Source: an uncultured Planctomycetaceae bacterium (GTDB lineage Bacteria; Planctomycetota; Planctomycetia; Planctomycetales; Planctomycetaceae). Taken from it: a stretch of 64,000 nucleotides of DNA. The first letter of the stretch is position 1. Every line of letters begins with the position of its first letter. The stretch covers positions 82,918 to 146,917 of the forward strand of contig CAWAVN010000015.1 in assembly GCA_963785505.1 (NCBI GenBank). Direction: 5' to 3'. The notes under the pieces were generated by a model that was not told the origin of the DNA, ran no database searches, and worked only from the letters and a program-made list of their open reading frames with translations. Below, one piece after another: positions 27,231-62,044 of the stretch. The position numbers and the translations under genes were made by a program.

Positions 27231-28662
27231 CTAAATAATGTAAATCAGCGGGAACAGGAAGATCCACACCAAGTCCACGAAGTGCCAATACAGGCCGCTG
27301 TTCTCGACCCAATCGGTCCAAGTTTGGTTGAGTTTGCTGCCTTGAAGCAAAGCGAGGGCAAACAAAATCATGCCCACAATCACATGCAAGGCGTGAAAGC
27401 CGGTCATCAGAAAATACACGGAAGCGAACAGGTTTCCGTAAACGATCACCGTGGGATGATGCACGGCGGCCATCAGATCTTTGTAGAGGTAATCGGGTTG
27501 GCCCGCCAGGTCTTTGCGGTCGATTTTGACAGGGGTTCCATCTTCTAGGCGAACGACAAGCGTTTTGTCATCGCTAACGGGTTCTTCGGCTTCCTCGTGC
27601 TCGACTTGGGCCGTTTCTTTTTCGTGCTTCACATCGGCGTGCTGGGCATGTTCTTCCTCGACCAACACCACGCCCTCGATGGTTTGCTCATCCGTGGTGG
27701 TGATGCGGGCCATGTGTTTCAGATCGTAAATTTTTTCTTGGACTTCTTCGAGCGTGAGATGGGACGGGCCTTGGATCGACTTGACATCAGCCGGTTTAAC
27801 CGCGACTTCTGCAACTTTGCTCTCGGTCAAGGTAATGAGCTTCAGCGACTTTTTATCGCCCGCCTCCGGCACCAAAATCCCGGACTGCTTTTTGCCATCG
27901 GCGGTGGTGATGGTCGTATAGTTGTTCGCAGGGTTTGCTTTCAGAGACACGTTTTGGGTGATGTGCTTTTGGAGGAGCACAAACTGATCGTTCAGTTTCA
28001 GGAACCGCTCGATTTCGGTTTTGCGTTCGGCGGACGTGTCTTCCGAGTCGCGCTGCTTTTCCAATTCCTGGATTTTTTCTTTCTGGATGAAACGCGGGAT
28101 TCTTGGCGAGGTCTTCCGGCGTCAGTTCTCGTTTTTCTTCCTCGGCATCTTTTTCCAACTCTGCCTTCACTTGGCTGTCGGGGCGGAGTTTAGCCAACCC
28201 GGCATCGACGGCAGCTTGCATTTCCCTGAGCGTTTTATTGATGGCTTGCTCATCGCTCTCGGCGATGTGGCCGGGGATGATGTCGTGCTCGAATTTCCCG
28301 TAATACTCAAAGCCTTTAATCAGTAAGAACAGGCAGGCGCATCCGAAGACCGCAAATAGCAATGCACGGGCTTTCCCATAATTCTTTTGGGTCATGGCTT
28401 CGAAGGCCACTACGACCATATAGCTGGAGGCGATTAAGACGAAGGTATTGATCCCGCCAGCCAGCACGTTGATGTGCGTTTGCTCGACCGTGGGCCAAGG
28501 CTGCGATCCCACGCGAAGCACGATGTACGTCCCGATGAACGCCGTGAAAAACATGATCTCCGTTCCCAGGAACAGCCACATCCCCAATTTGGAATTGGGA
28601 ATGGGAATGCCCATTTTCACGGGGGAAGGCGATTGTGGATGGTCCAAAGTCGAGTGTGACAT
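27231..28662 (-). CDS. ctaE: Cytochrome c oxidase subunit III with a large hydrophilic insertion; one frame break near 28097
   Basis: N-terminal part (ORF 27853..28662): [24 protein letters not shown] and two further TM segments. C-terminal part (ORF 27231..28064): [25 protein letters not shown]...[19 protein letters not shown]. The two join as ...[27 protein letters not shown]... across a 1-nt shift. About 300 charged residues lie between the TM blocks. Confidence 0.85.
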
Positions 28663-28710
28663 GGCGATTGTGTTCTTAGTAAGTCGGATGATGGCCCCGG
28701 TTCGGGCCGA

Positions 28711-29680
28711 TTATTGCAACAACCGAAAATGGTCCCAGGTCAAAGCGAATAACAACAACGGCAAATACAACAGCGAGGCGAGCAGCAAACCCCGCGCGGT
28801 CTTTTCGGATTCCTGCCGCATGAACCGAACCGCGCACAGACAGTAGCCGATCCCTAAAATCAACGCGGTAAGGAAAAACGCATCTCCCGCCAAGCCGTGG
28901 CGACTGGGCAGCAAACTGATGGGCAACAAGGCCACGGCATAACCCGTCGCCAAAAACCCCGTCACACCCAACCGCTTTGAAGGCAACATTTTGAGATGGG
29001 CCTTTGCGTATTGTTCGCGATACAACCAGGCGATGGCCAGAAAATGCGGGAACTGCCATAGAAACAACGTAGCGAACAGACAAAAAGCCCCCGCGTTCAA
29101 TTCACCGCCCGCCGCCGTCCATCCCAACACGGGAGGCAGCAGCGCCGGGAACCGCGCCCACAGCGGTGCAAATTGCCGTCGTTCGTTTGAGGGGCGTATA
29201 GGCCAAGACGTAGATTAGCAGCGTCAACCCGGTCAGCAAGGCCGTGGTCAGATTGACGAAACTCGCCAGATAAAGCACCCCCGCCATGCCCGAAGTGATG
29301 CCGAACGCTAAGACTTCTCTCGGCAACAGACGATTGGCAGGCAAAGGCCGCCGGGCGGTGCGGGGCATCAGGCGGTCGGTTTCGCGTTCGCGGTATTGGT
29401 TGAGGGCGCTGGAACCCGCCGCAACCAACGCGATGCCGAACAACGCATGTGCCAACAGCGGGAATTGCACCGCGCCTTGGCTTGCCAAAGCAAACCCGAC
29501 ACACACGCTGATAAGCACCATTACCGCGATGCGGGGTTTGGTCAGTTCGAGATAATCTGCCAACCGCCCGGCAATCGCGGCGGACCACGGAAGGGGCACG
29601 GAGGCTTCGGCCAACACGCCCAGGTTGCCCCCATTGTCGGTTCGAGAAACTGTCGATGCAGGCGTTTGCACGTTGCTCAC
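28711..29680 (-). CDS. ctaB: Protoheme IX farnesyltransferase (heme O synthase); one frame break near 29137
   Basis: ORF 29102..29680 reads YLELTKPRIAVMVL...NQYRERETDRLMPRTARRPLP...TAVGAVPGAA. After an apparent extra G, ORF 28711..29130 continues PPVLGWTAAGGEL...LFLWQFPHFLAIAW. Confidence 0.9.
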
Positions 29681-29681
29681 C

Positions 29682-30662
29682 TTATAGCCCTCCTTCCCAG
29701 GTCAAGCCGGCTTCGGAGAGCGTCGGCAGGGGATTTCCGGCTACAGTTGAAGAGGAAGACACCGAACCCCAATGGGCCAGCTTCAATTTCAAAGCGACGG
29801 CGGAAGCCAACAGCAACATTCCGCTCACGGTATGGGCGCTGCGGATTACGATGTGCGGGATGGAATTGACCACGCCGACGTAACCCAAGGGGCCGAACCC
29901 AAACTTCATCACCCAAGCCCCCAGCCCCAAACCCACCTGCAACAATAAAAACCCGCACATCAACCAACCCGCGCGTTTCACGGTGGGAATTTTCGAGCGA
30001 TGGGCGGCGATGGTTGTGGCGATGACCAACATTGTCACCAAAATCGCCCCGCCGAGATGCTCGTGCAAGGCCATGCCCAAATGCCGGACAAAGCCGCCCA
30101 ATAAAAATTGCAGGAAGATCGCCAGACAAGCCAAGGCAGTCAACACGGAAAGCGAGGGCGAAACTTTCTGCGGGGTTTGTGCTTTCACGGAACCTTCAAG
30201 CCAAGATCGGCTGGTAATCACAGAAACCGAAGCCATGAGACAAAATACCAAGGCGGCGAAACTGCCGTGTATCATTGCCAATGCCCGTTTATCCAAGCGA
30301 ACCCGTCCGCCGCCCAATCCCCCTTGGATAATCACCGCCAACAGCACGCCGTAACAGGCCCAGCGCACGCTTTTGCGGGGTTCGGTTTTCCAGGCAATTG
30401 CCGCGAGGCCGATGGCGACGAATCCGATCAGAGCACCCGCCAAGCGGTGGCCGTGCTCGATAAACTTATCCCCCGCCGATTTCAGCCAAGGGTAAAAGAA
30501 CAGGTTGTAGCCGTCGGATGAGGGCCAATCGCGAAAAGCCATGCCGGCGTTTAACGTGGTCACCAGCGCCCCCACGATGATGGGCAAAAGTGCCAACAAC
30601 ATCGTCAGAACCGCAAAGCGGTGCAGCAGCGGATTGTATTTCACGTTGTTCATCGAACTCAA
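29682..30662 (-). CDS. ctaA: Heme A synthase (COX15/CtaA family)
   Basis: Polytopic 326-aa ORF with conserved His pairs (FIEHGHRLAG; HLGMALHEHLGG) and AFRDWPSSDG. Confidence 0.88.
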   Translation of the reverse strand: MSSMNNVKYNPLLHRFAVLTMLLALLPIIVGALVTTLNAGMAFRDWPSSDGYNLFFYPWLKSAGDKFIEHGHRLAGALIGFVAIGLAAIAWKTEPRKSVRWACYGVLLAVIIQGGLGGGRVRLDKRALAMIHGSFAALVFCLMASVSVITSRSWLEGSVKAQTPQKVSPSLSVLTALACLAIFLQFLLGGFVRHLGMALHEHLGGAILVTMLVIATTIAAHRSKIPTVKRAGWLMCGFLLLQVGLGLGAWVMKFGFGPLGYVGVVNSIPHIVIRSAHTVSGMLLLASAVALKLKLAHWGSVSSSSTVAGNPLPTLSEAGLTWEGGL

Positions 30663-36249: not shown

Positions 36250-39200
36250 TTATTCTTGTTTCGCAGCCGCTGTGGGTTCGGCGGCGGGCGGTGGTGGGGC
36301 TTCGATTTTGCCTTGGCTTTGCAGTAGCTGATTGTAGTTCAACATTGCATCTCGCAAAGCACGCACTTGGGTGTCGGCGTCTTCCTGCTTGCCTATCTTG
36401 AAATAGCCCTTCAAGGGATCGCCGGTCGGCCCGATCATCGCTGTGTACGGCAGAACCCATCGCGGGCTTTGCAACCAGGCTTCCAAAAACTCGGGACGAA
36501 ACCGGTCGGCCAGGCGCGTGGTCAGATCGGGACCATGCGTGACCTGCTTGGGATCTTGCACCTTGAACTCATCCCCCGCGACGGAATGGCATTTCCGGCA
36601 AGCGGCGAATTTTCCCAGCAACTTCCAAGAGTGGGCCAGATAGTCCGGTTGCGCTTTGGCCTCTTCCGGGAACTTCTCGCGATATTCGCGGTTTTCCTTC
36701 GCGATGTAGGTGGGCTTGGTTTGCGGAATGTCTTGGTACGGATATTCCGCTTGCTTCACGGCGGCGAAATAATTGGCGAGCGAAAGCGCCTCCGCATCAC
36801 TCATGTTGAAGCGGGGCATGCGAAGCACGGTTTCGTGGCGAATTCGCTCTGGGTTTTTGAGAAATTGGTAGAGCCAAGGCGTTTGGACTTTCAAGCCTTC
36901 CATGTCCAACGGCGGCGGCGAGGATTGCCTGGCTTTGTTAATTTGATCGAGCTTTCCACCGGATAGCCTTTCGACAAGCCATTCGGTGAACACGCCGCCG
37001 CGACCCCGGTTCATTTCCACAACGTCCGCGGGGCTAAACAGCATTCTGCTGGTAGGCAGCAAAATCCGCCCGCCCACGCTCAAAGTGTCCCACAGGTCGT
37101 AAGCGTATTGTTCTGCATCTTCGCTATAAATGCCCATTCCATGAAAATGAAGTACGGGATCGCCATTCTTCGCGACTTGTTTGGTTTCCCCGCTTTGCGG
37201 CGGTTTGACTTTGAACAAGGCCAAAACCCCGCCGGGCAACATTCCCGACTTAGGATTTTTGAGGGGGGCCACATCGACCAATAAGGTTTCAGGGTGGTTG
37301 CCGAACCATTTTTGCAGATTCGCCCGATAACGGTTTTCGGTTTCGATTTTGGACAGCTTGCGTTGGGAATTGGTTGCAGTCACGCTGGCGAGGTTCGCGA
37401 TCCCCCGCACATCGATATCCTCTTTGAACACCACGCACAACTCTTGGATTTTCGTGATCTCGTCGGGATAGGCCGTTAAACTGCCGTCGATCAGTTTTTC
37501 GTGGTTCTCTACGAACCACTCGATGATTTGATCGAGCGTCATCTCGACGCCTGACACGTCTGCGTAGGTGGCCGCGAGTGTTTTGGGATGCTCGTCGAAC
37601 CACCCGTTGAGATAGCTTTTCAAGTCAGCTTTTTCGGTTCCCGCTGCTTTCGTCGCTTGTTTTGCCAAGCCTTGCAGACTGGTTCCCGCGTGCTTGAGCA
37701 GTTGATCGTCGAGCTGCCGATAGTAGGGTTCGTAAGCAGCCCGCCTGAGCTTGCCTCCGCAAGTTTATCCCGGTTCTCGATCAACCAGTCCACAACATCT
37801 TCACGTGATTCGCGGGGTTTGACGGTTTGGTAAACCTCCGGTAGTTCGACCATGTGGCAACTGGTGCAATTGTATTTGTGCAGCAGAGCTTCGCCTTCGT
37901 AACGGGCTTGGGTTGGGCCTTGGGGATGGAATAGATATTTCTCGGCGGGCGGCTCGGCGGTGAGGCCCAACACAAACGTGGCCACGGCTTCGATTTGATC
38001 GCTCTGGAACGGGAATCGCGGCATTTTGAGCCGTTCATCGTAGCGTTTGGTGTCGATCTTTTCGTAATCGTAGCTTCGCGGTTGACGAAGTTTTTGCCAG
38101 AGAAAACCGGGGCGACCATGATGCAGAATGCTGTCGTAAAAGAACGCCTTGGTCATGCCCGCTTCGGCTTCTTCCTCGGTCTTGAACTCCTCGGAGTTTC
38201 CGCGTTTCATCGCCTGATCGACTTGCTCGGTCAGAGGCGTGTCCGCATCGGGCGTGTTGTGGTGGCTCAAAAATTCGGTGATGTGCTCGTAAGCCAACCG
38301 GCTGGTGTCTTTGCGGCCCCAATCTTGCAAAGCCACGCCGATGGGTTTGGCGGCTTCAAAGCCGGGAATGTCGTGGCAACCGTAGCAACCGTATTGCGAA
38401 ATCGTGCGACGGCCTAAGTAGTTCAACTTCATCGCCTGCCATTCGGCATCGCTGGGCGTAGCGCCTTCCTTGTGGGTCAACTCGATTTCATCGCCTTTAA
38501 TCTGATCCGGCTTGTAGGGATAAACCCGCGTTTCTGCCAACTCTTTGCGTTGGGGGGCCGTCAAAACCTGAGCGAGATTGAGTTCGACCAGCCTGTCCAA
38601 ATTGCTGGTGACAGTCGCCTCGCTCCCGGCGTTTTCCAGGCGAGTTTTCAAGGCTTCGGCTTCTTCATGGGACAAATCGGCCCGAATGGCGCGGGGAAGA
38701 TGATCGAGCATCTCCCCGACTTCACCCGCGTTCAAGCCGGTCGCCTTTTGAACCACGGCTTGGACCGCATCGCGGTCTTCGCCCACTTTGTCGAGAACCA
38801 CATCAAATTTATCGAGAGCGAAAGTTTTGTAGTCCGCGGGGTTCTTGTCGCGTTCTTGCAGCAAAAACGCGGCGATGTCGGCGGCAGGATCAATCGCTTC
38901 CTTGCCTTTTTCGGCGGGTTCAGGGTCGATGAACAAGTTCGGCATCTTGGTGCGTTTGCTGTAGCGATGCGGATCGCGAATCCAGGAATACACCCACTGG
39001 AAGCCCTCGGCTCCGGGCTTCACTTTGGCGAAGACCTTGTCCAAATTCGGGCCGAAATCCATCTTCGATTTGGGAAAATCCTTGTGGGAATGGCACGCCA
39101 AGCAACCGCGTTCTGCGAACAGTTTTTGGCCGCGTTCGGCATCGGGCTTGTAATCTTTGGGGGGAGAAAGCAATTCCAGCGGCTGGGATTTCTCTAACAG

Positions 39201-40400
39201 GAAGTGGCTAATTGCCGCCACTTGCACGGGCTGGTAAGCCTTGGCCAATTCATCTTCTTGGTTGGTCAGATGGAAAAACTGCGGCATGCGGGTTGTGGGC
39301 CGAAAGTTCTTTGGCTTGTTGATCCAATCTTCCAACCAGCCCGCGGTGGTTTTCTTATCCACGTAGCGAAGAGCCGGGCCGACTTTGCGGTATTTGCCGG
39401 GGTTTTCCACATCCTTCAATTCACCAGCCAAGGCGTGAACCCGCGAGTCAAACAAGGGTTTTGCCAGCCCTTTGTCTGCAAGCACCAATTGTTCCAACTC
39501 TTGCCGTTCTTCCGGTGTATCGGCAGGGTCATCCGCCACCCGATCGGCCAAGGCTTGAATTTGCTTGAGCCTGTCCGCTCCATCGGGAGATTTCTCTTTG
39601 GCTTCGACAGCAGCGGCGGCAATCGCCTGGGCAACGGCGAAGTGGTTGGGCTCCAAACGCAAATCCGGCCCCAGTGATTTCTGGCCATCTTTGCCGTGCA
39701 TTTCGTGGCAGCCGAAGCAACCGTATTGTTGAATCGTATGAAATCCTTTGACCACTTTCGGCGCACTGTTGCCGAACTTGGGGCTGGTTTCCAATTCCAC
39801 CACATCGTGATGGCATTTCAGGCAGGTGGATTCCCGGAAGCGTTCCGGCTGCATCGCGTATTCCCAAAAGTGATTGGGATGGTAATGGTATTTCTCCGCC
39901 CAATGCTCGTTTTCGATGGGATCGTTCGGCGTGTGCGAGGCATTGCCGAACGATGTGCCGGAGCCTTGCCCATCGTGGCAAATCGTGCAGCCAAAGTTCC
40001 CCGTGGGATGCGGACTGGTCGAAGTCAGGTACAAATCGGGATTGGGGTGCGTCGAATACGGGTGCGGGTATTTGCTCTCTTTCACCCATTTCTTAACTTC
40101 CGTTTCACTCGGATCATCATCCGGCACCAGCGCGGCATCGTGCGGAAAGGTAGGGATGTTGCCCGCTTCCACGCGGTCGATGCCCAAATGGCAGGTTTTG
40201 CAGCGGTCGAAGCGGGCGGTCGAGGCCATGCCCAGCGTAATCTTCAAATCGGGCAGCCAAATCTGATCGACTTTATGCGGAGAATTGAAGCCATCAATAA
40301 TCGGCAACTGCATAAAGTCGCGTTTGAAGTAGGCCAGAGTTCCCGGCTCCGGGGCGATTTTATCCTTGGCTTTGTTCAGCCGCTCGACTTCTTTTTCCAC
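36250..40400 (-). CDS. Multihaem (8 x CxxCH) c-type cytochrome; one frame break near 37750
   Basis: ORF 37620..40400 carries CKTCH, CTICH, CLKCH, CFGCH, CLACH, CYGCH and CTSCH. ORF 36250..37668 carries CRKCH. The two overlap by 49 nt, and a 1-nt correction gives the continuous reading ...DWLIENRDKLAEA/LRRAAYEPYYRQLDDQLLKHAGTSLQGLAKQATKAAG... Confidence 0.85.
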
Positions 40401-40543
40401 CGCCGCCAGTTCCGTTTGAATGGCGATGCACTCGATCCTTCATCTCCTGTTGTTTTTGCTTGGCCTGATTGAGTTGCGTGGTCAGTGTCTGAACTTTCAG
40501 TTCTTGCTCATCGACGGCAGCCTGTCTCTTTTCGAAACTCTAG

Positions 40544-45925: not shown

Positions 45926-46100
45926 ACTTTAGACTGTAGGCTGTAGGCTGTAGCCAAACTAAAATCTGAAAACCAAGTTACTTGATTGTCCCATCAACGA
46001 GATGCGAAGCGGGGCTTCGCGAGAGTGTGTTCCCAAGCAGAGCTTGGGAACGAGATTGAACTGAAAACTGAAAACCATCTGACAAAGGACCACAAACAAC

Positions 46101-47776
46101 ATGCAACTCAACCGTTATAGTGCCCGCGTGACTCAACCGCGTTCTCAGGGGGCTTCGCAAGCCATGCTCTACGGCACGGGCATGACCGAAGAAGACATGA
46201 ACAAGCCCCAAATCGGCATCGCCAGCATGTGGTACGAAGGCAACACCTGCAACATGCACCTCAACGACTTGGCCGCCGGGGTTCATGCGGGCGTGAAGTC
46301 GGCGGGCATGGTCGGCATGCGATTTAACACCATCGGCGTCAGCGATGGAATTTCGATGGGAACCGACGGCATGTCGTACTCGCTGCAATCGCGGGACTTA
46401 ATCGCAGACTCCATCGAAACCGTGATGGCCGCCCAATGGTACGATGCCCTTATCACGCTGCCCGGCTGCGACAAAAACATGCCCGGCTGTTTAATGGCAA
46501 TGGGCCGCCTCAATCGCCCCGCGATCATGGTCTATGGAGGAACCATCAAAGCCGGCTGCAATTCCTTCCGCGAGAAGTTGGACATCGTTTCCGCGTTTCA
46601 ATCCTACGGCGAATATCTTTCCGAATCCATCAGCGATGCCGAGCGAAAAGAAATCGTCCAAAAAAGCTGCCCGGCGCGGGAGCCTGCGGCGGAATGTATA
46701 CCGCCAACACGATGGCCTCCGCCATTGAAGCTCTGGGCATGAGCCTGCCTTATAGTTCTTCCATTCCCGCCGAAGATCCCGCCAAGCAGGAGGAATGCCG
46801 GCGGGCAGGCGAAGCGATTTTGCATCTCTTGGAACGCAACCTTTGCCCGCGCGAAATCATGACCCGCGAAGCCTTCGAGAACGCCATGGTCATCATCATG
46901 GCTTTGGGCGGTTCCACGAATGCCGTGCTGCACTTGATCGCCATGTCGCGGGCGGTGGACGTGAATTTGACGCTCGACGACTTCCAAAAAGTCAGCGACC
47001 GCGTGCCTTACGTGGCCGACCTCAAACCCAGCGGCAAGTACGTGATGGAAGATCTGCACCACATCGGCGGCACGCCGGCGGTCATCAAATACCTGCTGGA
47101 TGCCGGCCTAATGAACGGCGAATGCCTAACCGTCACCGGCAAGACGCTCGCCGAGAACGTGGTCGATTTGCCGGGCCTTTCCGCGGGCCAGGAAATCATC
47201 CGCCCCATCGACCAACCCATCAAACCCAGCGGGCACTTGCAGATTCTGCGGGGCAACGTGGCCCCGGAAGGTTCGGTCGCCAAGATCACCGGCAAGGAAG
47301 GCTTGAAATTCACCGGCCCCGCCCGCGTGTTCGATTCCGAAGAAGACATGCTCAAAGGCTTGGAAGACAAGAAGATTCAAAAAGGGGACGTGGTGGTGAT
47401 TCGCTATGAAGGCCCCAAAGGCGGGCCGGGCATGCCGGAGATGCTCACGCCCACTTCCGCCATCATGGGGGCCGGGCTTGGCTCGGACGTGGCCCTGCTG
47501 ACCGATGGCCGATTTTCCGGCGGTTCGCACGGCTTCATCGTGGGCCACATCACGCCCGAAGCCCAAGAAGGCGGCCCGCTGGCCCTGTTGGAAGATGGCG
47601 ACATCATCACCATCGATGCCGACCGCAAACGCATCGATGCGGCTCTCGCCGATGAAGTCCTCGCCGACCGCGCCGCCCGCTGGAAGAAGCCCCCCTACAA
47701 AGCCAACCGGGGCACACTCTATAAATACATCAAAACCGTAAAAACCGCCTCCGAAGGCTGCGTCACAGATGAGTGA
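46101..47776 (+). CDS. ilvD: Dihydroxy-acid dehydratase; one frame break near 46671
   Basis: ORF 46101..46742 reads ...[19 protein letters not shown]...[10 protein letters not shown]...IVQKSCP. After a 1-nt deletion in a C-run, ORF 46436..47776 continues [22 protein letters not shown]...[23 protein letters not shown]. Confidence 0.95.
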
Positions 47777-47929
47777 ATGTAAGTTGAAATAGAGTGGGCC
47801 GTCCACCAAATCGGTCTGATGTTAAGCCCGTTTACCTCATGTCAAAACATGCGTCTCCACTACAAATGCTGGGGAACGAGGGTATGATTGCTCCCTTCCA
47901 CTCGATCACAATTCCAGAGTAATTACGAT

Positions 47930-50284
47930 ATGAGTGTGCCCTACCACCAGTTGAATCAACTCGTAGCAATGGGCGTTCTCTCCGAAGAGGATCTCAGTAT
48001 TATTAAGGACTGGGCTGTTCCCTTTGAGCACCTTATCGATCTTCTTTTCGATAAAGGGCGGATGACCAAATATCAGGCCGACCTAATTTGCAACCGCCGG
48101 GCGGAATGTTAGTCATCGGCGAATACATCATCCTCGACAAGTTGGGGGCCGGCGGAATGGGCGTGGTCTATAAAGCCCGGTACCGCCGATGCACCGTGAA
48201 GTGGCGATCAAGATGCTGCTGGAATCCGGGCAGCAATCGGAAGAAAAGATCGAGCGGTTTCGGCGAGTAGCCATCGCCGCCGTCCGCATGAATCACCCGA
48301 ACATCGTCACCGCGTATGCCGGCAACGAGCACGAAGGCATCCCTACTTGGTGATGGAGTACGTCAAAGGCCGGGATTTGGCTTCGCTGGTTAAAGAGGGC
48401 GACAAACTGCCAATCCCCGAAGCGGTGAATTACGTTCTGCAAACCGCTGTCGGCATGGCTTACGCGCACAGCCGGCACATCATTCACCGCGACTTGAAGC
48501 CGTCCAATCTGCTTTTGGCCACGCCGGACGATGCGGACATTCGAGCCGGACAATATTCTCGCGTGAAGATTCTTGATATAGGTCTGGCTCGGCTGACGCA
48601 CCCGGAAGGTGAAGTGGTCTCGCCCGCCTTGGAAGGCAGCGATCATTCCGCGGCCCAGGCTTTGATGGGAATTGTGGCCTATATGGCCCCGGAGCAAATC
48701 TTGGACACTAAGCGGGCCGACCACCGCACAGACATTTACAGCCTGGGTTGCACCCTTTATTTCCTTTTGACGAAAAAACCCGTTTATACCAGCATTAACC
48801 CGTTGCAACAGATTTCCGCTATTCTGACCGATAACGTGCCCTCGCTCAAGGCGGCACGTCCCGATGCTCCCGAAGAGTTGGAAGCCGTCTTCCAAAAAAT
48901 GGTGGCTAAGAACCCCAAGGACCGTTGCCAGTCTATGATGGAAGTCGTCGAGACCTTGGGAAAAATCGATCGGCAGCTCAGCGGCCTCGATTCCTCACCT
49001 TCCCACTGGTCCGGCAGCAGTCCCGACGCTTGTGTCGAGTTTGCACAACCGGGATCTCCCTATGGAACGAAATCGAAATCGGGGTCGGGGTCGCAAGGCT
49101 CGGCTCCCACGATTGCTTCCGGGTCCGGTCCGGTTCCAGGTGTCGTTGGTTCCTCCTATGGCAGCACATCTTACGGAGAAGATTTACCCATCGATTGCAC
49201 GCTGAGGAGCAATGATCGCCCGCTGTTGAGTAACCGCAAATCGGTCATTTCCTTCCTGAAAGATGTCATAAAGTCGAGTTGGGTCTATGGAGGAAAGCAG
49301 AAAAAGCGATCCAACGAGGGGAAAGCGAGTAAGCGAACAAGCCCTAAACAAACTTCCTCAATTGTTCCAATCGACTTAGGCGAACCGACTTTAGAGAGAG
49401 GACATTTTGAGGATTCCGATTGGCAGAAAAAAGATGCGGTCGATTGTTCGGTGTTTGCCCCGCCGACCGTTGTTCTGCAAGACATGGTTCTCGTGCAAGT
49501 TTTTGTTCACAACCCAGCGGAATATCAAGCCGCTTCTGAGACGGCAAAACGATTCGATGATGATGCCAAGCCGCGGGGAACGACCTCTTTGGGGACTTTG
49601 ATCAAACGGGGCGAAAGGCTTGCTTTCGAGTTGTGTATTCCAAACTTTGAAGTGGAGGAGACCCGTCAGCAATTGATCTGGTCCGGCAGAACGGCATCTG
49701 TCCAATTTGTAGTGCGGGTAGGAACGCAAGTTAGTTTGGGAACGTCAATAGGAGCCGTTGTCGTCTCCCAAGGTTCCATTCCAATTGGAAAAATCCAATT
49801 CAAGATCTCGATTGTCGGCACTGGTCAAACCTCACCCCTTGAACTCGTTCATGGAGAAGTGTCTCGCTACAAGCAGGCATTTATCTCCTATGCTTCTCAA
49901 GATCGATCAGAAGTTCTTCGACGAGTCCAAATGTTAAAGGCTGTTGGAATCCGATTCTTTCAAGACATCTTTGATTTAAACCCAGGGGATCGCTGGAAGA
50001 CGAAGCTCTACGAGAAAATAAATGAATGCGATGTCCTATTTTTGTTTTGGTCCACGGCAGCGAAACAGTCCGAGTGGGTCGAAAAGGAGTGGAAGTTCGG
50101 CCTTGAATGGCGAGGCGACCAATTTATACGACCGATAGTCATCGAAGGCCCTCCCATTCCAAGCCCGCCGCCCGAACTCGCTCATTTGCATTTTGGCGAT
50201 CCTGTGTTGTATTTCCTTACGAAGACATGGTTTCAAAGGCTGGTTTTTTTGCTGAGTCGGTTTTCACTCCGATCTAGATCTTGA
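47930..50284 (+). CDS. Ser/Thr protein kinase - beta-sandwich-like module - TIR domain fusion; three frame breaks in the kinase N-lobe (~48095, ~48185, ~48343)
   Basis: The N-terminus MSVPYHQ...LTKYQADLI, G-loop LGAGGMGVVYKA and MHREVAIKML lie in three short frames. ORF 48347..50284 then carries HRDLKPSNLL, DIGLA and YMAPEQ, an S/G-rich linker, and the TIR domain (AFISYASQDRSEVL...CDVLFLFWSTAAKQSEWVEKEW). Confidence 0.8.
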
Positions 50285-55189: not shown

Positions 55190-56887
55190 CCCGGATTATT
55201 CGTGAAGGTTTGAAAGATTGAGCCCCCTCATACGTCTAAAGTTTGTGTTGTTCTGAACTTTGGACGTGACGCGGAGGCTCCTCATGAGTTTACAAACTGT
55301 TGAGACGAATCGCTTCTCTTTTTTCTCGAAAAAGCCCGTGGTGGTGGAGACAACACCACTCCGATTGACCAGTGATGCGGGTCTGTTGCCCTTTCGAGAA
55401 CTGGATCATCAGTTGGGATTCACGGCGGGGTTCAACCAGGCGCTGCGGGATTCCCGGCGGTCCGCATCTATCACACATTCCACTTTGGAAATGGTGCGCT
55501 CGCGCGTGTTCGGCATCTTGGCGGGCTATCCCGATCAAAATGATCATGACACCTTACGCTTCGATCCCGTGTTTCAATTGATCGCGGACCGCGTCCCCGG
55601 CGAAGACCCGTTGGCCAGCCAGCCCACGCTCTCCCGCTTTGAAAATGCGATCACGCCGGGCGATTTGTTTCGACTGAGAAGCACGTTGATCGATCAGTTC
55701 ATCGCCTCGTTCGAGGAACCGCCGAGTCGATTGCTCTTCGATCTGGATGCCTTTGATGATCCGGCCCACGGGCAACAACAACTCTCGTTGTTTCATGGAT
55801 TTTATCGGCAGTCTCAATACTTGCCGTTGGCGATCACTTCGGCGGAGACCGACTTGGTCGTCTCGATCAGCCTGCGGCATGGCACGGCGAAAGCGTGTTT
55901 GGGGGCGGATGCGGACCTCAAGTTTTTGGTGCATCGCCTGCGCGGCGTGGCCGGATGTGGTCATCGAAGTCCGAGCCGATAGCGGGTTCGGCCAACCGGA
56001 AATGTACGCGGTGTGCGAGGAGTTGAGATTGATCTACACCTTGGGCTATCAAATGAACTCGGTGATCAAACAACGCACCGCAGACCTCTTGGAACAAGCG
56101 GTTTCGCAGCACGAAGCGCAGGTGGCGGCACTCCAAGAACGCGGCGAGTTGGTCACGCACGAGAACACCAAGGTGCGATGGTTTACGGGGTTTTGGTATC
56201 GCGCGGGAACGTGGGACCGAGCGCGTTATGTGGTGGTCAAAGTCGAAGCGCACCTGCAAGGAACCAACCGCCGAGCGGTGGTCACGAACCGAGCGGGCGC
56301 GGAAGTTTTGCCGCAGGGAGTTTATGACGAATACGTGCAGCGCGGGGAAAGCGAGAACCGTCACAAGGAATTGAAAGTCTCGTTGGACGCCGACCGTTTG
56401 AGCGACCACCGCGTGCTGGCCAATGCCTTTCGATTGTGTTTGCATGTGCTGGCTTACCACCTGTTGGTGCGGATGCGGCAGCGCGTGGCCGACCCTCCCG
56501 AAGTGCCCGGCGGGTTGGATCGCGAGGCGATGCCGAAGCCGGACCGAAAGCGTTACGACAACCAGCGTCGCCGCAGTGATCCCTTGGGGGAAGGCCACGC
56601 GGAAACTTGGCGGACCCGCGTGATCAAAGTCGCCGCGGAGGTGGTGATCCGCGCTCGACACATTCGCATCCGTCTTCCCGCACACTGGCCGCACCTGCCG
56701 CATTTCTTGAACGTGATGCAGACCGTTCTCGCCACTGCTCCTGGCTGATGTCCTAAGTTCCGTCCCGCTGCCAGAACCCGTCCGCCGCACAAAAAAATCT
56801 GGGAGGGGACCGGTCTGGACCTCGCTCAACCAATCGCTCGAAAAGCCAACCGACGATCGAAATCGAAACACTCACGAATAATGCGGG
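55190..56887 (+). mobile_element. IS1380-family-like insertion sequence (1698 bp) with imperfect terminal inverted repeats and a 4-bp TTAG target-site duplication
   Basis: IRL is CCCGGATTATTCGTGAAGGTTTG. The reverse complement of the right end is CCCGCATTATTCGTGAGTGTTTC. TTAG occurs at 55186-55189 and 56888-56891. One DDE transposase gene lies inside. Confidence 0.85.
55284..56748 (+). CDS. IS1380-family DDE transposase; one frame break near 55944
   Basis: A GGAGG RBS precedes the ATG at 55284. LTSDAGLLPFRELDHQLGF...GYPDQNDHDTLRFDP...LVHRLR is followed, after an apparent extra G, by AWPDVVIEVRADSGFGQPEMYAVCEELRLIYTLGY...YVQRGESENRHKELK (ORF 55747..56748). Confidence 0.85.
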
Positions 56888-57456: not shown

Positions 57457-58350
57457 TCAACTTCGATTTCGAGTCCAGCCCAGTGGTTCTCGGTATTGTT
57501 TCCATTCGGATGGAATACCGTCAGAGCCAACATTCAGAGCGACGATCCCACCGATAATTGCACATGTCGTATCAATGTCACCGCCAACACGGGCGGCAGT
57601 CCACATCGCCTCGCAGTAATCATTCAGGTGAGCCGCAGCCATCCAAATGCAGAATGGCACCGTGTCCTGAGCGCTGATCTCGTGCCCACAACCAACTTGT
57701 GACGCAATCGTGAAGGCCCATGTATCGAGGGGATATGTCGCCGCCCATTCCAATCGTCTCCGAACTTCGCTTTGATCTATTTTTGAGATCACCCACGGGA
57801 TCAACTCTTCCGCTCGCTGGGACTCGCATCGCCACGCCCAACCCGCTGCCAGGGCAATTGCGATGGTTCCAATCTGAGCTTCTGGGTGAGTATGTGTGAC
57901 CTCCGCTGAAAGTGCGGCCTGCTTGATTGTTAGTTCAACGTCATTGGCAAACCATGCGCCGAGCGGAGAAACCCGCATGGCCGCACCGTTTCCGTGCGAG
58001 CCGCATCCACCAAACATCTGGTGGCTCAGGGTTCTCCAACATCCGCCCGCTGCAATGTCATCAAGTAGCCTTTTAGCACCAGCCCCATACCCACGGGAAG
58101 GCTTTGCTTGATATCGTTCCACAAGTCGCTGGGCGAGAAAGTCTTGGTCAACAGATTCACAGTCACGGAGTGTTTGCGTCAATGCGATAGCCATTTCCGT
58201 GTCGTCGGTGTAGTTCCAAGGAGGTGGCGGTGGGTTATTGCGATTTGCTTCTGCGGCAACATGCGGAGAGAAAAACTGCTGGCCAAATGCGTCTCCAATC
58301 GAAAGGCCGTCCAGCGACAAACACGCTCTTTCCAATCGATCTTCAGACAT
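57457..58350 (-). CDS. ADP-ribosylglycohydrolase family protein
   Basis: The ATG at 58350 lies in ORF 57457..58356. Motifs: LDGLSIGDAFG, YTDDTEMAIAL, GNGAAMRVSPLG, GGDIDTTCAIIGGI. Confidence 0.85.
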   Translation of the reverse strand: MSEDRLERACLSLDGLSIGDAFGQQFFSPHVAAEANRNNPPPPPWNYTDDTEMAIALTQTLRDCESVDQDFLAQRLVERYQAKPSRGYGAGAKRLLDDIAAGGCWRTLSHQMFGGCGSHGNGAAMRVSPLGAWFANDVELTIKQAALSAEVTHTHPEAQIGTIAIALAAGWAWRCESQRAEELIPWVISKIDQSEVRRRLEWAATYPLDTWAFTIASQVGCGHEISAQDTVPFCIWMAAAHLNDYCEAMWTAARVGGDIDTTCAIIGGIVALNVGSDGIPSEWKQYREPLGWTRNRS

Positions 58351-58473
58351 TTTCAAATCCTCACTTCAGCAATGGTGATGCTCACTCATTATAGAAAAAG
58401 CCCGCTCGGTTCGATGCAACCGAGCGGGTTTTGGATGTTCAGTCCCTAAAAGTAGTGATCCCGGTTCACGCCA

Positions 58474-60794: not shown

Positions 60795-61045
60795 AGTGGA
60801 GAGCCGTCTGCCTCGGTGTAAATGTCTTCATCATCATGCGACCACAATTCATGGACTGACGATGTTTCTTGAAGCCGCATCCATTGCGGTACAGTTGGAT
60901 CTTCAGGCGGAACCGGCCATCTCTTTACTACCGATCCACCGTCCGATTCCACTTCATTCTCATCAACTACCTTTTCTGTTTGCTTGCTGGAGTAAGAGTG
61001 CAAGAGGGATTTGAAGCCGTTAATCTCCATTGTTGTTGTTTTCAT
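60791..61045 (-). CDS. Putative cognate antitoxin (family not recognised)
   Basis: The ATG at 61045 (or 61030) lies inside ORF 60791..61162. The stop overlaps the MazF start by 4 nt (ATGA). Acidic 84-aa product. Confidence 0.5.
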   Translation of the reverse strand: MKTTTMEINGFKSLLHSYSSKQTEKVVDENEVESDGGSVVKRWPVPPEDPTVPQWMRLQETSSVHELWSHDDEDIYTEADGSPL

Positions 61046-61472
61046 CGTCTTCCACCTTTTTTTTAGAGTTCTTTTCCAACAATTCAAAAGGTCGCTGCAA
61101 AAGAAGTTTCTTATTCCCGAAAAGCCGAACGTAATAGGTTCCAGGCTCACCAAAAGGAACATTTTTTAATTCAAAAACCATATCAAAAATAGTTGATGGA
61201 TTAACCCCATCCATATCAACCGGCCCCTCGGCTTTAAAAACTGGCTCATCCGTTTCGCCGTGTACAATGTCTATGCCACAGGTTGCGCCTGGGTATATTT
61301 CAGTTATGGACACATAAACACAAATTTTTAACTTCATAACCGGAATTTTTGGAACGACAAGGCGATTAAAAATCCCAATTATCGCCAACTTTCCAGATGA
61401 ATCCGTGTAGATGTCGTCACAAGGAACAATAGCTAGTCCTTCTGGTTCTTTGCCTGTCAGTTTTTCAGCCAT
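61020..61472 (-). CDS. Hypothetical protein, first gene of the MazF module
   Basis: 150-aa ORF in AT-rich DNA that overlaps the next gene's start. Predicted mostly beta with an acidic/Asn-rich tail (KKKVEDDENNNNGD). It faintly resembles DUF6941-type proteins from memory; not verified. Confidence 0.5.
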   Translation of the reverse strand: MAEKLTGKEPEGLAIVPCDDIYTDSSGKLAIIGIFNRLVVPKIPVMKLKICVYVSITEIYPGATCGIDIVHGETDEPVFKAEGPVDMDGVNPSTIFDMVFELKNVPFGEPGTYYVRLFGNKKLLLQRPFELLEKNSKKKVEDDENNNNGD

Positions 61473-61926
61473 TTCTTGGGAAGCCTGAATGCCAAAAGTT
61501 TGCGGGAGAACAATCTTATAGACTGTGTCAATAGAAGATCTTCATCCCGAACCAGGAATTATTACGCACACCACTCCTTAAGTCAATACGTTATTTGTGT
61601 TTAAGTTTTTTTCCTAAGAATGAGAATAATAACGCAACCTTTACGGTAGAAATAGTTTGTCTCAATAATAATCTTCAAATCGGTCCAAATCAACTCGATA
61701 CTTGCAGCTTTTCCCCTCTAAATTATATAAACATGTGTTTATTTCATGTGGTACAGTTTGAAATAGACCACTCGTGTTCTGGCGAGGCCATCGAATGCAA
61801 TGCCGCCACCTAGAGTATTTGTTGCGTCTCTTGATACGATTCGGTGATACGATATTCCGCTTTTTTGGTATCAAAAGTGGCAACTATTGGAATTTTGACC
61901 AGTATAAAAGCTGATTAAAAATGCCT

Positions 61927-61961
61927 AGAAAAACAGCCTTAAACCACTATGGTTTAAGGCT
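61927..61961 (-). terminator. Rho-independent terminator of tRNA-Lys
   Basis: On the minus strand, AGCCTTAAACCA-TAG-TGGTTTAAGGCT is followed by GTTTTTCT, beginning 9 nt after the tRNA 3' end. Confidence 0.7.
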
Positions 61962-61970
61962 TTAAGAAAA

Positions 61971-62044
<74 letters not shown>

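Follow-up and report, generated by a model that had tools for sequence, protein, structure and literature searches.

The gene analysed here lies on the + strand at positions 47930-50284 of a 64,000-nucleotide (nt) stretch of DNA from an uncultured Planctomycetaceae bacterium (contig CAWAVN010000015.1; the whole stretch is called the window below). It encodes a single-chain, cytoplasmic protein in which a Hanks-type Ser/Thr kinase is followed by a beta-sandwich and a C-terminal TIR domain. We hold with moderate confidence that a kinase unit has been joined here to a UPA-like sandwich-TIR cassette of different origin, and that the product is a sensor-regulated TIR effector that cleaves nicotinamide adenine dinucleotide (NAD+) in a conflict-type role. 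The gene is a real feature among sensor-coupled TIR effectors and belongs to a sizeable, unstudied family.

Domain architecture of the kinase-sandwich-TIR gene

The coding unit was spread over four open reading frames (ORFs) of the + strand (47888-48112, 48088-48270, 48189-48353 and 48347-50284), and the deposited annotation contains only a 643-amino-acid (aa) product (P0121) from about 48353 onwards. When one base was inserted at each of three frame breaks, a 785-residue protein without in-frame stops was obtained. Its ATG at 47930 was aligned with residue 1 of the intact relative P0122, and its stop codon lies at 50282-50284. The last of the four frames (645 aa) ran uninterrupted through the kinase C-lobe, the linker, the middle module and the TIR to the stop, showing that the kinase-TIR fusion is independent of any frame repair. 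In the frame-repaired protein, Pfam placed Pkinase at residues 67-340 (E=1e-48, 166.5 bits, cut-off 31.7) and TIR_2 at residues 652-758 (E=2.7e-18, 67.1 bits, cut-off 28), both well above the curated cut-offs. The gene was laid out as follows.

47930..50284, + strand: whole gene, 785 codons plus stop after restoring three missing bases
47930..48097, + strand: N-terminal region of ~56 residues, common to relatives with a kinase and an FGE-sulfatase domain (kinase-FGE relatives) and aligned with P0122 from residue 1
48127..48946, + strand: Hanks-type protein kinase domain, residues 67-340 (Pfam Pkinase)
48962..49183, + strand: Ser/Gly-rich linker, kept in kinase-FGE relatives and the last stretch of the gene with homology to them
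49184..49190, + strand: module junction, where protein and DNA similarity to kinase-FGE relatives ends and the G+C content of third codon positions (GC3) falls
49190..49429, + strand: basic, mostly disordered stretch of ~80 residues with one predicted helix (SVISFLKDVIKSSWVY)
49430..49816, + strand: beta-sandwich half of the cassette, opening with a conserved D-x-V-D-C-[ST]-V-F-A-P-P strand
49853..50218, + strand: TIR half of the cassette, with the motifs FISYAS, FQD..L.PGDRW, LFLFWS and SEWVEKE and a conserved tail EGPP…PPELAHLHF
50087..50089, + strand: Glu721 (GAG), which is E300 of the modelled segment and is invariant in the family
50204..50284, + strand: hydrophobic/basic C-terminal tail LTKTWFQRLVFLLSRFSLRSRS and stop, with a helix predicted at low confidence

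An earlier sequence-only reading of this DNA had proposed four modules in this order; Pfam, AlphaFold2 and alignment agreed in placing all four within one gene at these positions.

The sandwich-TIR cassette

A search with the non-kinase part of the gene (window 49400-50281) returned 330 proteins, the best of which were 45-57% identical across ~90% of the query and covered the sandwich together with the TIR. The two halves had earlier been listed as independent modules; in the relatives they formed one conserved unit. As judged from these alignments, the sandwich and the TIR are a single cassette of ~265 aa that is widespread and self-contained. Its limits were marked by the D-x-V-D-C-[ST]-V-F-A-P-P motif at the start and EGPP…PPEL.HLHF at the end, and both motifs were present in the window copy. 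Proteins consisting of the cassette only were found as well (P0015 and P0030, 286 aa). In other members, the N-terminal Pfam partner was FHA, receiver (REC), MshEN, cyclic nucleotide (cNMP)-binding, guanylate cyclase, ankyrin, TPR, DUF4062, kinase or WD40, or there was none, and some cassette proteins were named sigma-70 family or NarL/FixJ by their source. A metagenome scan yielded at least 400 cassette relatives, from which 80 loci were kept; only 2 viral contigs carried the cassette. A tail of the W-F-x-R-L / W-x-R-F type was seen after the cassette in the window protein (TWFQRL, 50222-50266), in L078 (SWFSRL) and in P0030 (IWKRFSRWF), and is absent from the family consensus.

When the cassette was modelled by AlphaFold2 from a 62-sequence alignment, the predicted local distance difference test score (pLDDT) exceeded 90 over ~250 residues (segment ~80-330), with a predicted template modelling score (pTM) of 0.71. 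The sandwich occupied segment residues 81-209 and a minimal TIR residues 222-317, followed by a low-confidence terminal helix; the model suggests that the sandwich packs against the TIR as one unit. Modelled alone, the sandwich reached a pLDDT of 95.1 and a pTM of 0.89 with ten strands and one helix, in agreement with the Ig-like sandwich that had been proposed for this middle module. Foldseek matched it in the PDB to UNC5b (3g5b, template modelling score (TM) 0.66), ankyrin-B (4d8o, 0.64) and the NLRP1 FIIND (7crv/7crw, 0.54-0.56). We therefore call it a UPA-like Ig sandwich by predicted fold; common ancestry with UPA is not established. Pfam gave no ZU5 match in the protein, and the region upstream of the sandwich was disordered and unique. 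A search of a viral fold library returned generic Ig-like matches only.

The TIR call made from the sequence held up in both the TIR_2 score and the AlphaFold2 model, which has a TIR fold. Foldseek matches of the TIR half in the PDB were the SPARTA TIR-APAZ protein (8qlp_E), Hydra TRR-2 and the MyD88 TIR (root-mean-square deviation 2.5 Å). The second Glu of WVEKE was invariant in the 62 aligned relatives, as were the FWS strand, the F..Y motif, D259, and G266 and W269 of PGxxW, and the window cassette kept every family-invariant residue. Phmmer aligned WVEKE with WTNYE of AbTIR (8g83, deposited as 'NAD(+) hydrolase AbTIR'), WPQKE of PdTIR (3h16) and WVKKE of 9m0n, confirming that this Glu sits at the catalytic-motif position of solved bacterial TIR NADases, as had been suggested; similarity to PDB TIR chains was only generic (E ~3e-4). 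The Glu of the W-x-x-x-E motif is the catalytic residue of AbTIR and PdTIR, the activity of which requires TIR self-association. Because the Glu is invariant and aligned with the catalytic-motif Glu of these two enzymes, the window TIR has the sequence prerequisites for a putative NADase activity.

The kinase unit and the module junction

The nearest relatives of the kinase half were P0122-P0129 (64-73% identity over residues 1-~430, including the Ser/Gly linker), all of which end in an FGE-sulfatase domain except P0125 (551 aa). The frame-repaired protein was 72% identical to P0122 from residue 1 to ~421, without gaps at any of the three breaks. By these alignments the N-terminal unit is assigned to a planctomycete kinase clade in which an FGE-sulfatase (C-type-lectin-like) domain forms the C-terminus of the other members. 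The window kinase was the outgroup of the clade, with 70-79% identity to the other members vs 76-96% among them.

The kinase was described from the sequence as carrying a complete motif set, which could not be upheld. K95 (48210), H187-R-D189 (48485), N194, D217-I-G (48575) and APE were present; however, the alpha-C helix Glu was replaced by Val114 (GTA, 48267-48269), and the activation and P+1 loops were altered. Four of the five residues of the active-kinase set (beta3 Lys, alpha-C Glu, HRD Asp, loop Asn and DFG Asp) were thus kept. At sites invariant in the other nine members, the window kinase had 24 private changes, 20 of them in the C-lobe and 8 of these in residues 240-259. In the N-lobe, where all three frame breaks lie, only 3 of 60 otherwise-invariant sites differed. 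This pattern looks like remodelling or relaxation of the substrate/regulatory surface and not like general decay, which together with the nearly unchanged N-lobe suggests that the frame breaks are very recent or not real.

The Ser/Gly linker (48962-49183; P0122 residues ~350-420) exceeded the kinase itself in protein-level conservation (…GSQGSAPTIASGSGPVPGV.GSSYGSTSYG). At the DNA level it was only ~77% identical to the nearest relatives, with the differences scattered, suggesting that the linker is functional in the kinase clade of the window protein.

Protein and DNA similarity to the kinase-FGE relatives stopped at nt ~49181-49190 (protein residue ~421), and DNA similarity to L001/L002 was limited to 48026-49181. 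At the same place the G+C content (GC) and GC3 fell from 0.56/0.63 to 0.48/0.49; core genes had a GC3 of 0.65-0.77. The gene as a whole had been called visibly more AT-rich than the flanking ilvD. This was true only past nt ~49184 (GC 0.48, GC3 0.49), whereas the kinase part had a GC of 0.56 vs 0.551 for the window. The window kinase was 72% identical to a kinase-FGE protein vs at most 41% to any other kinase-cassette protein. Since the kinase is closest to kinase-FGE proteins, and homology stops and GC3 falls at the junction, the simplest reading for the window copy is a separate event, fairly recent, in which a cassette gained by horizontal transfer took the place of the C-terminal region and its FGE domain. 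An in-situ domain swap in a syntenic orthologue was considered and rejected, as no window neighbour was found at a distance of up to 10 kb from the kinase-FGE genes of L001/L002. No donor of the 79-aa stretch after the junction was found: an apparent match to L078 was not significant over that stretch, and nothing else matched. A scan of the junction for repeats or a mobile-element scar gave none of note.

Kinase-cassette fusions in other genomes

The kinase-TIR architecture, noted earlier as lying outside the named TIR systems, is not rare: ~40 distinct kinase-cassette proteins were found in public metagenomes, and the kinase was the top N-terminal partner. Among 68 distinct cassette ORFs, picked regardless of N-terminus and scanned with Pfam, Pkinase was the commonest partner (9 ORFs), followed by TPR_12 (6), WD40 (2) and ankyrin (2). 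Five metagenome cassette ORFs had a clear Hanks kinase and five more had weak ones. When the unbroken 645-aa ORF was used to search representative proteins, P0245 (773 aa) gave a single continuous alignment (1-627 to 140-755, 41% identity). Dozens of further representatives of 600-780 aa matched in two stretches, and all 10 that were sampled had Pkinase and a C-terminal TIR_2.

The kinase-cassette set was taken as 41 proteins, the deposited copy of the window gene being excluded. The full five-residue catalytic set was kept in 22 of the 41; the other 19 did not show it, most of them having at least one of the five residues substituted. At the alpha-C position, Glu was present in 27 of the 37 other fusions that could be aligned there, and its loss as the sole change recurred in P0286 (Val), L069/P0325 (Ile) and P0354 (Ala). 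Pseudokinase-like fusions lacking HRD, DFG or Lys residues were also seen (P0267, P0284, P0294, P0298, P0308, P0257, P0291 and P0334); the degenerate motifs included HCN in P0267 and HSA…NFG in P0284. Other arrangements were an N-terminal TIR_2 followed by two kinase stretches and the cassette (P0241, 1324 aa; P0243, 1381 aa), and two kinase domains with the cassette (P0246, 1007 aa). At L093 (3683-5939) and L095 (2752-5008), a kinase ORF in another frame runs into the beginning of the cassette ORF; this may be a further frame-broken fusion or a pair of overlapping genes.

Comparison with known systems

No named TIR system had been thought to fit this gene, and the comparison agreed: no ThsA, cyclase, Argonaute or STING/SAVED partner was present among the neighbours, and no match beyond generic TIR/kinase similarity was obtained with PADLOC or NCBIfam models. 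AbTIR, PdTIR and ThsB of Thoeris share with the window TIR the TIR fold and its [FW]S…S-x-W-x-x-x-E motif. However, the window TIR is permanently joined to a sandwich and a kinase. The NCBIfam Thoeris model scored only 29 bits on the window protein vs a cut-off of 220, the ThsB models were far below their cut-offs, and a ThsA-type receptor gene (SIR2 or Macro/SLOG) was absent from the annotated neighbours of the window gene. With SPARTA only the TIR fold was shared; the protein had no APAZ match, and there was no Argonaute among the Pfam-scanned neighbours.

TIR-SAVED, TIR-STING and SARM1 appear analogous in layout, with a regulatory or sensor domain covalently joined to the TIR. In these proteins, TIR NADase activity depends on induced assembly. 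The best PADLOC TIR match was to the SAVED-TIR model (E=1.9e-9), for the TIR part only. Unlike SARM1 and the TIR effectors of CBASS and Pycsar, the window protein had no SAVED, STING, cNMP sensor, ARM or SAM domain, and an Ig-like sandwich adjoins its TIR. No cyclase neighbour of the kind expected for CBASS or Pycsar was found in the window; some relatives carry cNMP-binding or cyclase domains themselves.

The Hanks-type Ser/Thr kinase core is shared with Stk2 and PD-T4-6, which lack a TIR and work through the phosphorylation of many host proteins. Unlike theirs, the window kinase lacks the alpha-C Glu. PADLOC hidden Markov models of PD-T4-6 matched at E down to 1.7e-75, in the generic kinase domain only, and the nearest relatives were the kinase-FGE proteins. 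These planctomycete and cyanobacterial kinase-FGE-sulfatase (FGS/CLec) proteins have the same kinase and linker; past residue ~421 their C-terminus is replaced in the window protein. The FGS domain has been proposed as an invader sensor of conflict systems (PMC8195603) and reported as a target diversified by diversity-generating retroelements (PMC10907252), so that in the window protein a putative sensor domain would have been exchanged for a putative effector. TIR and S/T/Y kinases have been treated as alternative effector modules in the conflict systems of multicellular bacteria (PMC8195603, PMC7159879, PMC10907252).

In the animal UPA modules (FIIND of NLRP1/CARD8; ZU5-UPA-death domain of UNC5, PIDD and ankyrin), the sandwich likewise stands directly upstream of an assembly-dependent effector domain. 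The window protein differs from them in having no ZU5 and no HF/SF-S autoproteolysis motif, a TIR instead of a death fold, and only 8-16% sequence identity. Pkinase and TIR occur in one chain in the uncharacterised 'Kinase TIRs' of choanoflagellates, which were described as unique to choanoflagellates within the dataset of that study (Richter et al. 2018, PMC6040629). These are cytoplasmic eukaryotic proteins with no sandwich reported (PMC6040629), and they are likened to the window protein by domain content only.

Genomic context

Upstream of the gene lies ilvD. Downstream lie a ferredoxin-MBL protein, two GNAT genes, an ICMT-type methyltransferase, a GNAT-methyltransferase, a broken transposase and an ADP-ribosylglycohydrolase. 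The 64-kb window contained no further TIR or cassette gene and no NUDIX gene, and a promoter/terminator scan remained at chance level. The ADP-ribosylglycohydrolase gene (57457-58356, - strand), ~7 kb downstream of the TIR gene, might offer a link through ADP-ribose; evidence of linkage was not found.

Relatives of the cassette more often lay in conflict-like settings, as the following neighbours show.

L069 (kinase-cassette): TIR-WD40
L034 (kinase-cassette): MshEN-T2SSE-TIR and a MalT-type TPR protein
L089 (kinase-cassette): PIN domain
P0245 (kinase-cassette): TPR-S-cyclase gene 76 nt upstream, IS630 downstream
P0015 (cassette only): DUF4062-STAND NTPase
P0068 (FHA-cassette): ParE with antitoxin
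L019 (REC-cassette): NUDIX and a second TIR gene
L021 (N. punctiforme): NUDIX

The cassette gene was directly preceded, on its own strand, by a NUDIX hydrolase gene at L021 (5513-5983), L019 (1553-1972) and L026 (3997-4548). NUDIX was rejected as a conserved partner, since these were only 3 distinct loci of about 70 and the window had none. The vicinity of the L021 locus (Nostoc punctiforme) also held nucleoside hydrolase, deaminase and PNP genes and a Tn7-like element.

Elsewhere in the window, an AT-rich stretch at 61000-62000 (GC 0.38-0.40 vs 0.55 for the window) contained short ORFs only, and a multi-haem cytochrome c protein of ~940 aa (37620-40439, - strand) also matched the C-terminal domain of Ribosomal_L12 (E=1e-10), which is an odd pairing.

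Frame breaks in the window gene

The three breaks lie within ~245 nt, and each was the loss of a single base in a short G/C run with the same direction of shift.

48098..48105, + strand: frame break 1, one base missing in CGGGCGGA, frame index 2 to 1
48187..48190, + strand: frame break 2, one base missing in CGCCGATG
48341..48344, + strand: frame break 3, one base missing in ATCCCT

The sequence-only reading had listed these breaks as a caveat. They are present; however, they are weaker evidence of a pseudogene than was supposed, since ilvD, COX3 and a UbiA-family gene share the defect. In ilvD (46083-47776, + strand), a one-base gap at ~46671-46675 in TGCCCGGCG fell inside a conserved motif, and the Pfam ILVD_EDD_N profile was matched over 1-155 in one frame and over 151-316, with the C-domain, in another. 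COX3, for cytochrome oxidase subunit III (27231-28710, - strand), was split into two frames (profile 77-179 and 188-255), its halves apparently separated by a long insertion. The UbiA-family prenyltransferase gene (28711-29701, - strand), which adjoins a COX15/CtaA gene, was split likewise (profile 1-127 and 125-243). Because these housekeeping genes are also frame-broken, the assembly has indel errors. A DDE_Tnp_1_4 transposase (55257-56748, + strand) was split exactly at profile position 210 (~55944-55949), which could be an assembly error or a real disruption. The closest relatives came from Planctomycetaceae metagenome-assembled genomes with contigs of 0.6-1.1 Mb, consistent with long-read assembly.

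We consider the three breaks rather more probably assembly indel artefacts than real lesions. A CCGG methylation motif was examined as the cause of their clustering: 3 of 5 breaks were within 3 nt of CCGG, a placement reached in 129 of 20,000 trials under a uniform null. It was rejected, as the same placement was unremarkable under a null restricted to all-G/C stretches (4,923 of 20,000).

Proposed function and alternative explanations

In the model that we favour, the cassette would be the output and its TIR would cleave NAD+. Cleavage would follow the self-association of cassettes, as it does in other TIR NADases, perhaps with the sandwich assisting, and the outcome would be NAD+ depletion or a signal derived from ADP-ribose. 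The N-terminal domain would be the input, permitting or blocking TIR activity. In the kinase versions, this input may be phosphorylation. With degenerate kinases in about half of the fusions, it may also be the kinase fold itself, used as bait or sensor. The phosphorylation gate suggested from the sequence thus survives as one option and not as a general rule. We give about an even chance to a role in a conflict or abortive-infection type of response, as is typical of planctomycetes, cyanobacteria and actinobacteria. This role is favoured over physiological signalling because of the fast turnover of partners, the foreign composition and the neighbourhoods of relatives.

Several observations weigh against this model. 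The alpha-C Glu (RFRRE) was present in 10 of 10 close relatives of the window kinase and is missing from the window copy. The activation/P+1 segment was altered as well (SAT to SAA, GTVDY to GIVAY), the P+1 Thr being replaced by Ile, and in the alignments the loss of the alpha-C Glu together with these remodelled loops fits relaxed constraint. Three breaks in 2.36 kb vs at least 4 in the other ~61.6 kb is a ~19-fold excess in density (Poisson p ~6e-4 for the breaks of this gene, before multiple-testing correction). In a database search the window fusion was a singleton, with one cluster and one contig, and the full-length search retrieved only its own deposited product P0121, carried on a 182,672-bp contig, with both Pfam domains. 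Its neighbourhood is not a defence island and consists of ordinary metabolic genes, with no defence or partner gene among the annotated or Pfam-scanned neighbours. The UPA matches of the sandwich were modest (TM 0.54-0.66, E ~1e-4 to 1e-5), and MSP, CARDB and PapD-like folds reached 0.42-0.47. Many N-terminal partners of the cassette (REC, FHA, cNMP-binding, cyclase and MshEN) are classic housekeeping signalling domains, which fit a physiological role equally. Lastly, the literature searched yielded no enzymatic or phenotypic data for any member, and neither the cassette itself nor a kinase-sandwich-TIR protein of bacteria was found described or tested there.

The most serious alternative, which we still regard as unlikely, is that the gene is dead or dying: a recent chimera that was never maintained, with real frameshifts and lost key residues, from which at most a truncated product with an internal start would be made. 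The clustering of the three breaks, the Val in place of an alpha-C Glu kept by every close relative, the 8 private changes in the activation/P+1 segment, the singleton status of the fusion and the annotation of only a 643-aa product by the depositors all fit such a gene. However, single-base breaks of just this kind, in G/C runs, also interrupt housekeeping ilvD, COX3 and the UbiA-family gene, and the N-lobe is otherwise almost unchanged, with few invariant sites differing and no in-frame stops. Moreover, the C-terminal 645-aa ORF is intact and its cassette keeps all family-invariant residues, and the loss of the alpha-C Glu alone recurs in the otherwise intact P0286, P0325 and P0354.

The chance that the cassette is instead an output of ordinary signalling, comparable to GGDEF or HD-GYP, was judged to be about one in a few. 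It would then synthesise or degrade a nucleotide messenger once the N-terminal domain senses phosphorylation, cyclic nucleotides or cyclic di-GMP. The housekeeping partners named above, with the guanylate cyclase domain and the proteins named sigma-70 family or NarL/FixJ by their source, point in this direction, as do the metabolic context in the window, the lack of a fixed partner gene, the near absence of the cassette from viral contigs, and the hundreds of members in free-living cyanobacteria and planctomycetes with large signalling repertoires. The fast turnover of N-terminal partners and the compositionally foreign cassette of the window gene argue against it, and several neighbourhoods of relatives were conflict-like (other TIR proteins, STAND NTPase, PIN, ParE and insertion sequence elements). 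The TPR, WD40 and ankyrin partners are typical sensor arms of conflict systems (PMC7159879, PMC8195603), which also tells against ordinary signalling.

A kinase acting purely as bait is improbable. Here the kinase fold, as a non-catalytic decoy for invader proteins directed at host kinases or as a switch that binds nucleotide, would free the TIR when perturbed, like the integrated decoys of plant NLR proteins. This would account for the 19 of 41 fusions without the full five-residue set (e.g., P0267, P0284, P0294 and P0308), for the missing alpha-C Glu and P+1 Thr of the window copy, and for the clustering of its private substitutions on the substrate-binding surface of the C-lobe. However, all catalytic residues are retained in 22 of the 41, so that many of the fusions probably do make use of catalysis, and direct evidence of an interactor was lacking. 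In ordinary bacterial signalling, too, degenerate kinases are common.

That the fusion is a chimera, produced when metagenome assembly wrongly linked two separate genes, one for the kinase and one for the cassette, at the low-complexity Ser/Gly linker, is very improbable: the assembly is clearly error-prone, the composition shift is abrupt and the junction directly follows a low-complexity linker that is highly conserved among paralogues, but a 645-codon frame runs across the junction, the linker DNA is ~77% identical to its nearest relatives and hence no long exact repeat, no repeat or mobile-element scar marks the junction, and about 40 independent natural kinase-cassette fusions exist.

Within the favoured model of a sensor-regulated TIR effector, a bolder version was given only a small chance. 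Here the cassette would be the prokaryotic counterpart of the animal UPA-effector unit (FIIND UPA-CARD, ZU5-UPA-death domain), that is, a portable self-assembling death or signalling module in which the UPA-like sandwich nucleates TIR oligomers and the preceding sensor restrains it. In the kinase versions, phosphorylation or the capture of a pseudokinase bait would directly license the NAD+-cleaving TIR. If this were true, the protein would be a one-protein kinase-to-NADase immune switch, which is not known from any characterised system. If the UPA resemblance is functional, it would add a further structural parallel between bacterial conflict systems and the death-fold/inflammasome machinery of animals.

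Significance of the family

The window gene itself is a questionable representative of the family and a poor starting point for experiments, for which the intact P0245, P0260 and L054 are better suited. TIR NADases and Ser/Thr kinases are each established in bacterial immunity, and a characterised coupling of the two in a single polypeptide was not found in the literature searched. Control of the TIR by the kinase, if it exists, would connect phosphorylation signalling directly with NAD+ metabolism. With hundreds of members in which one sandwich-TIR unit is combined with interchangeable inputs, the family is a natural domain-swap series for how a TIR is switched on.

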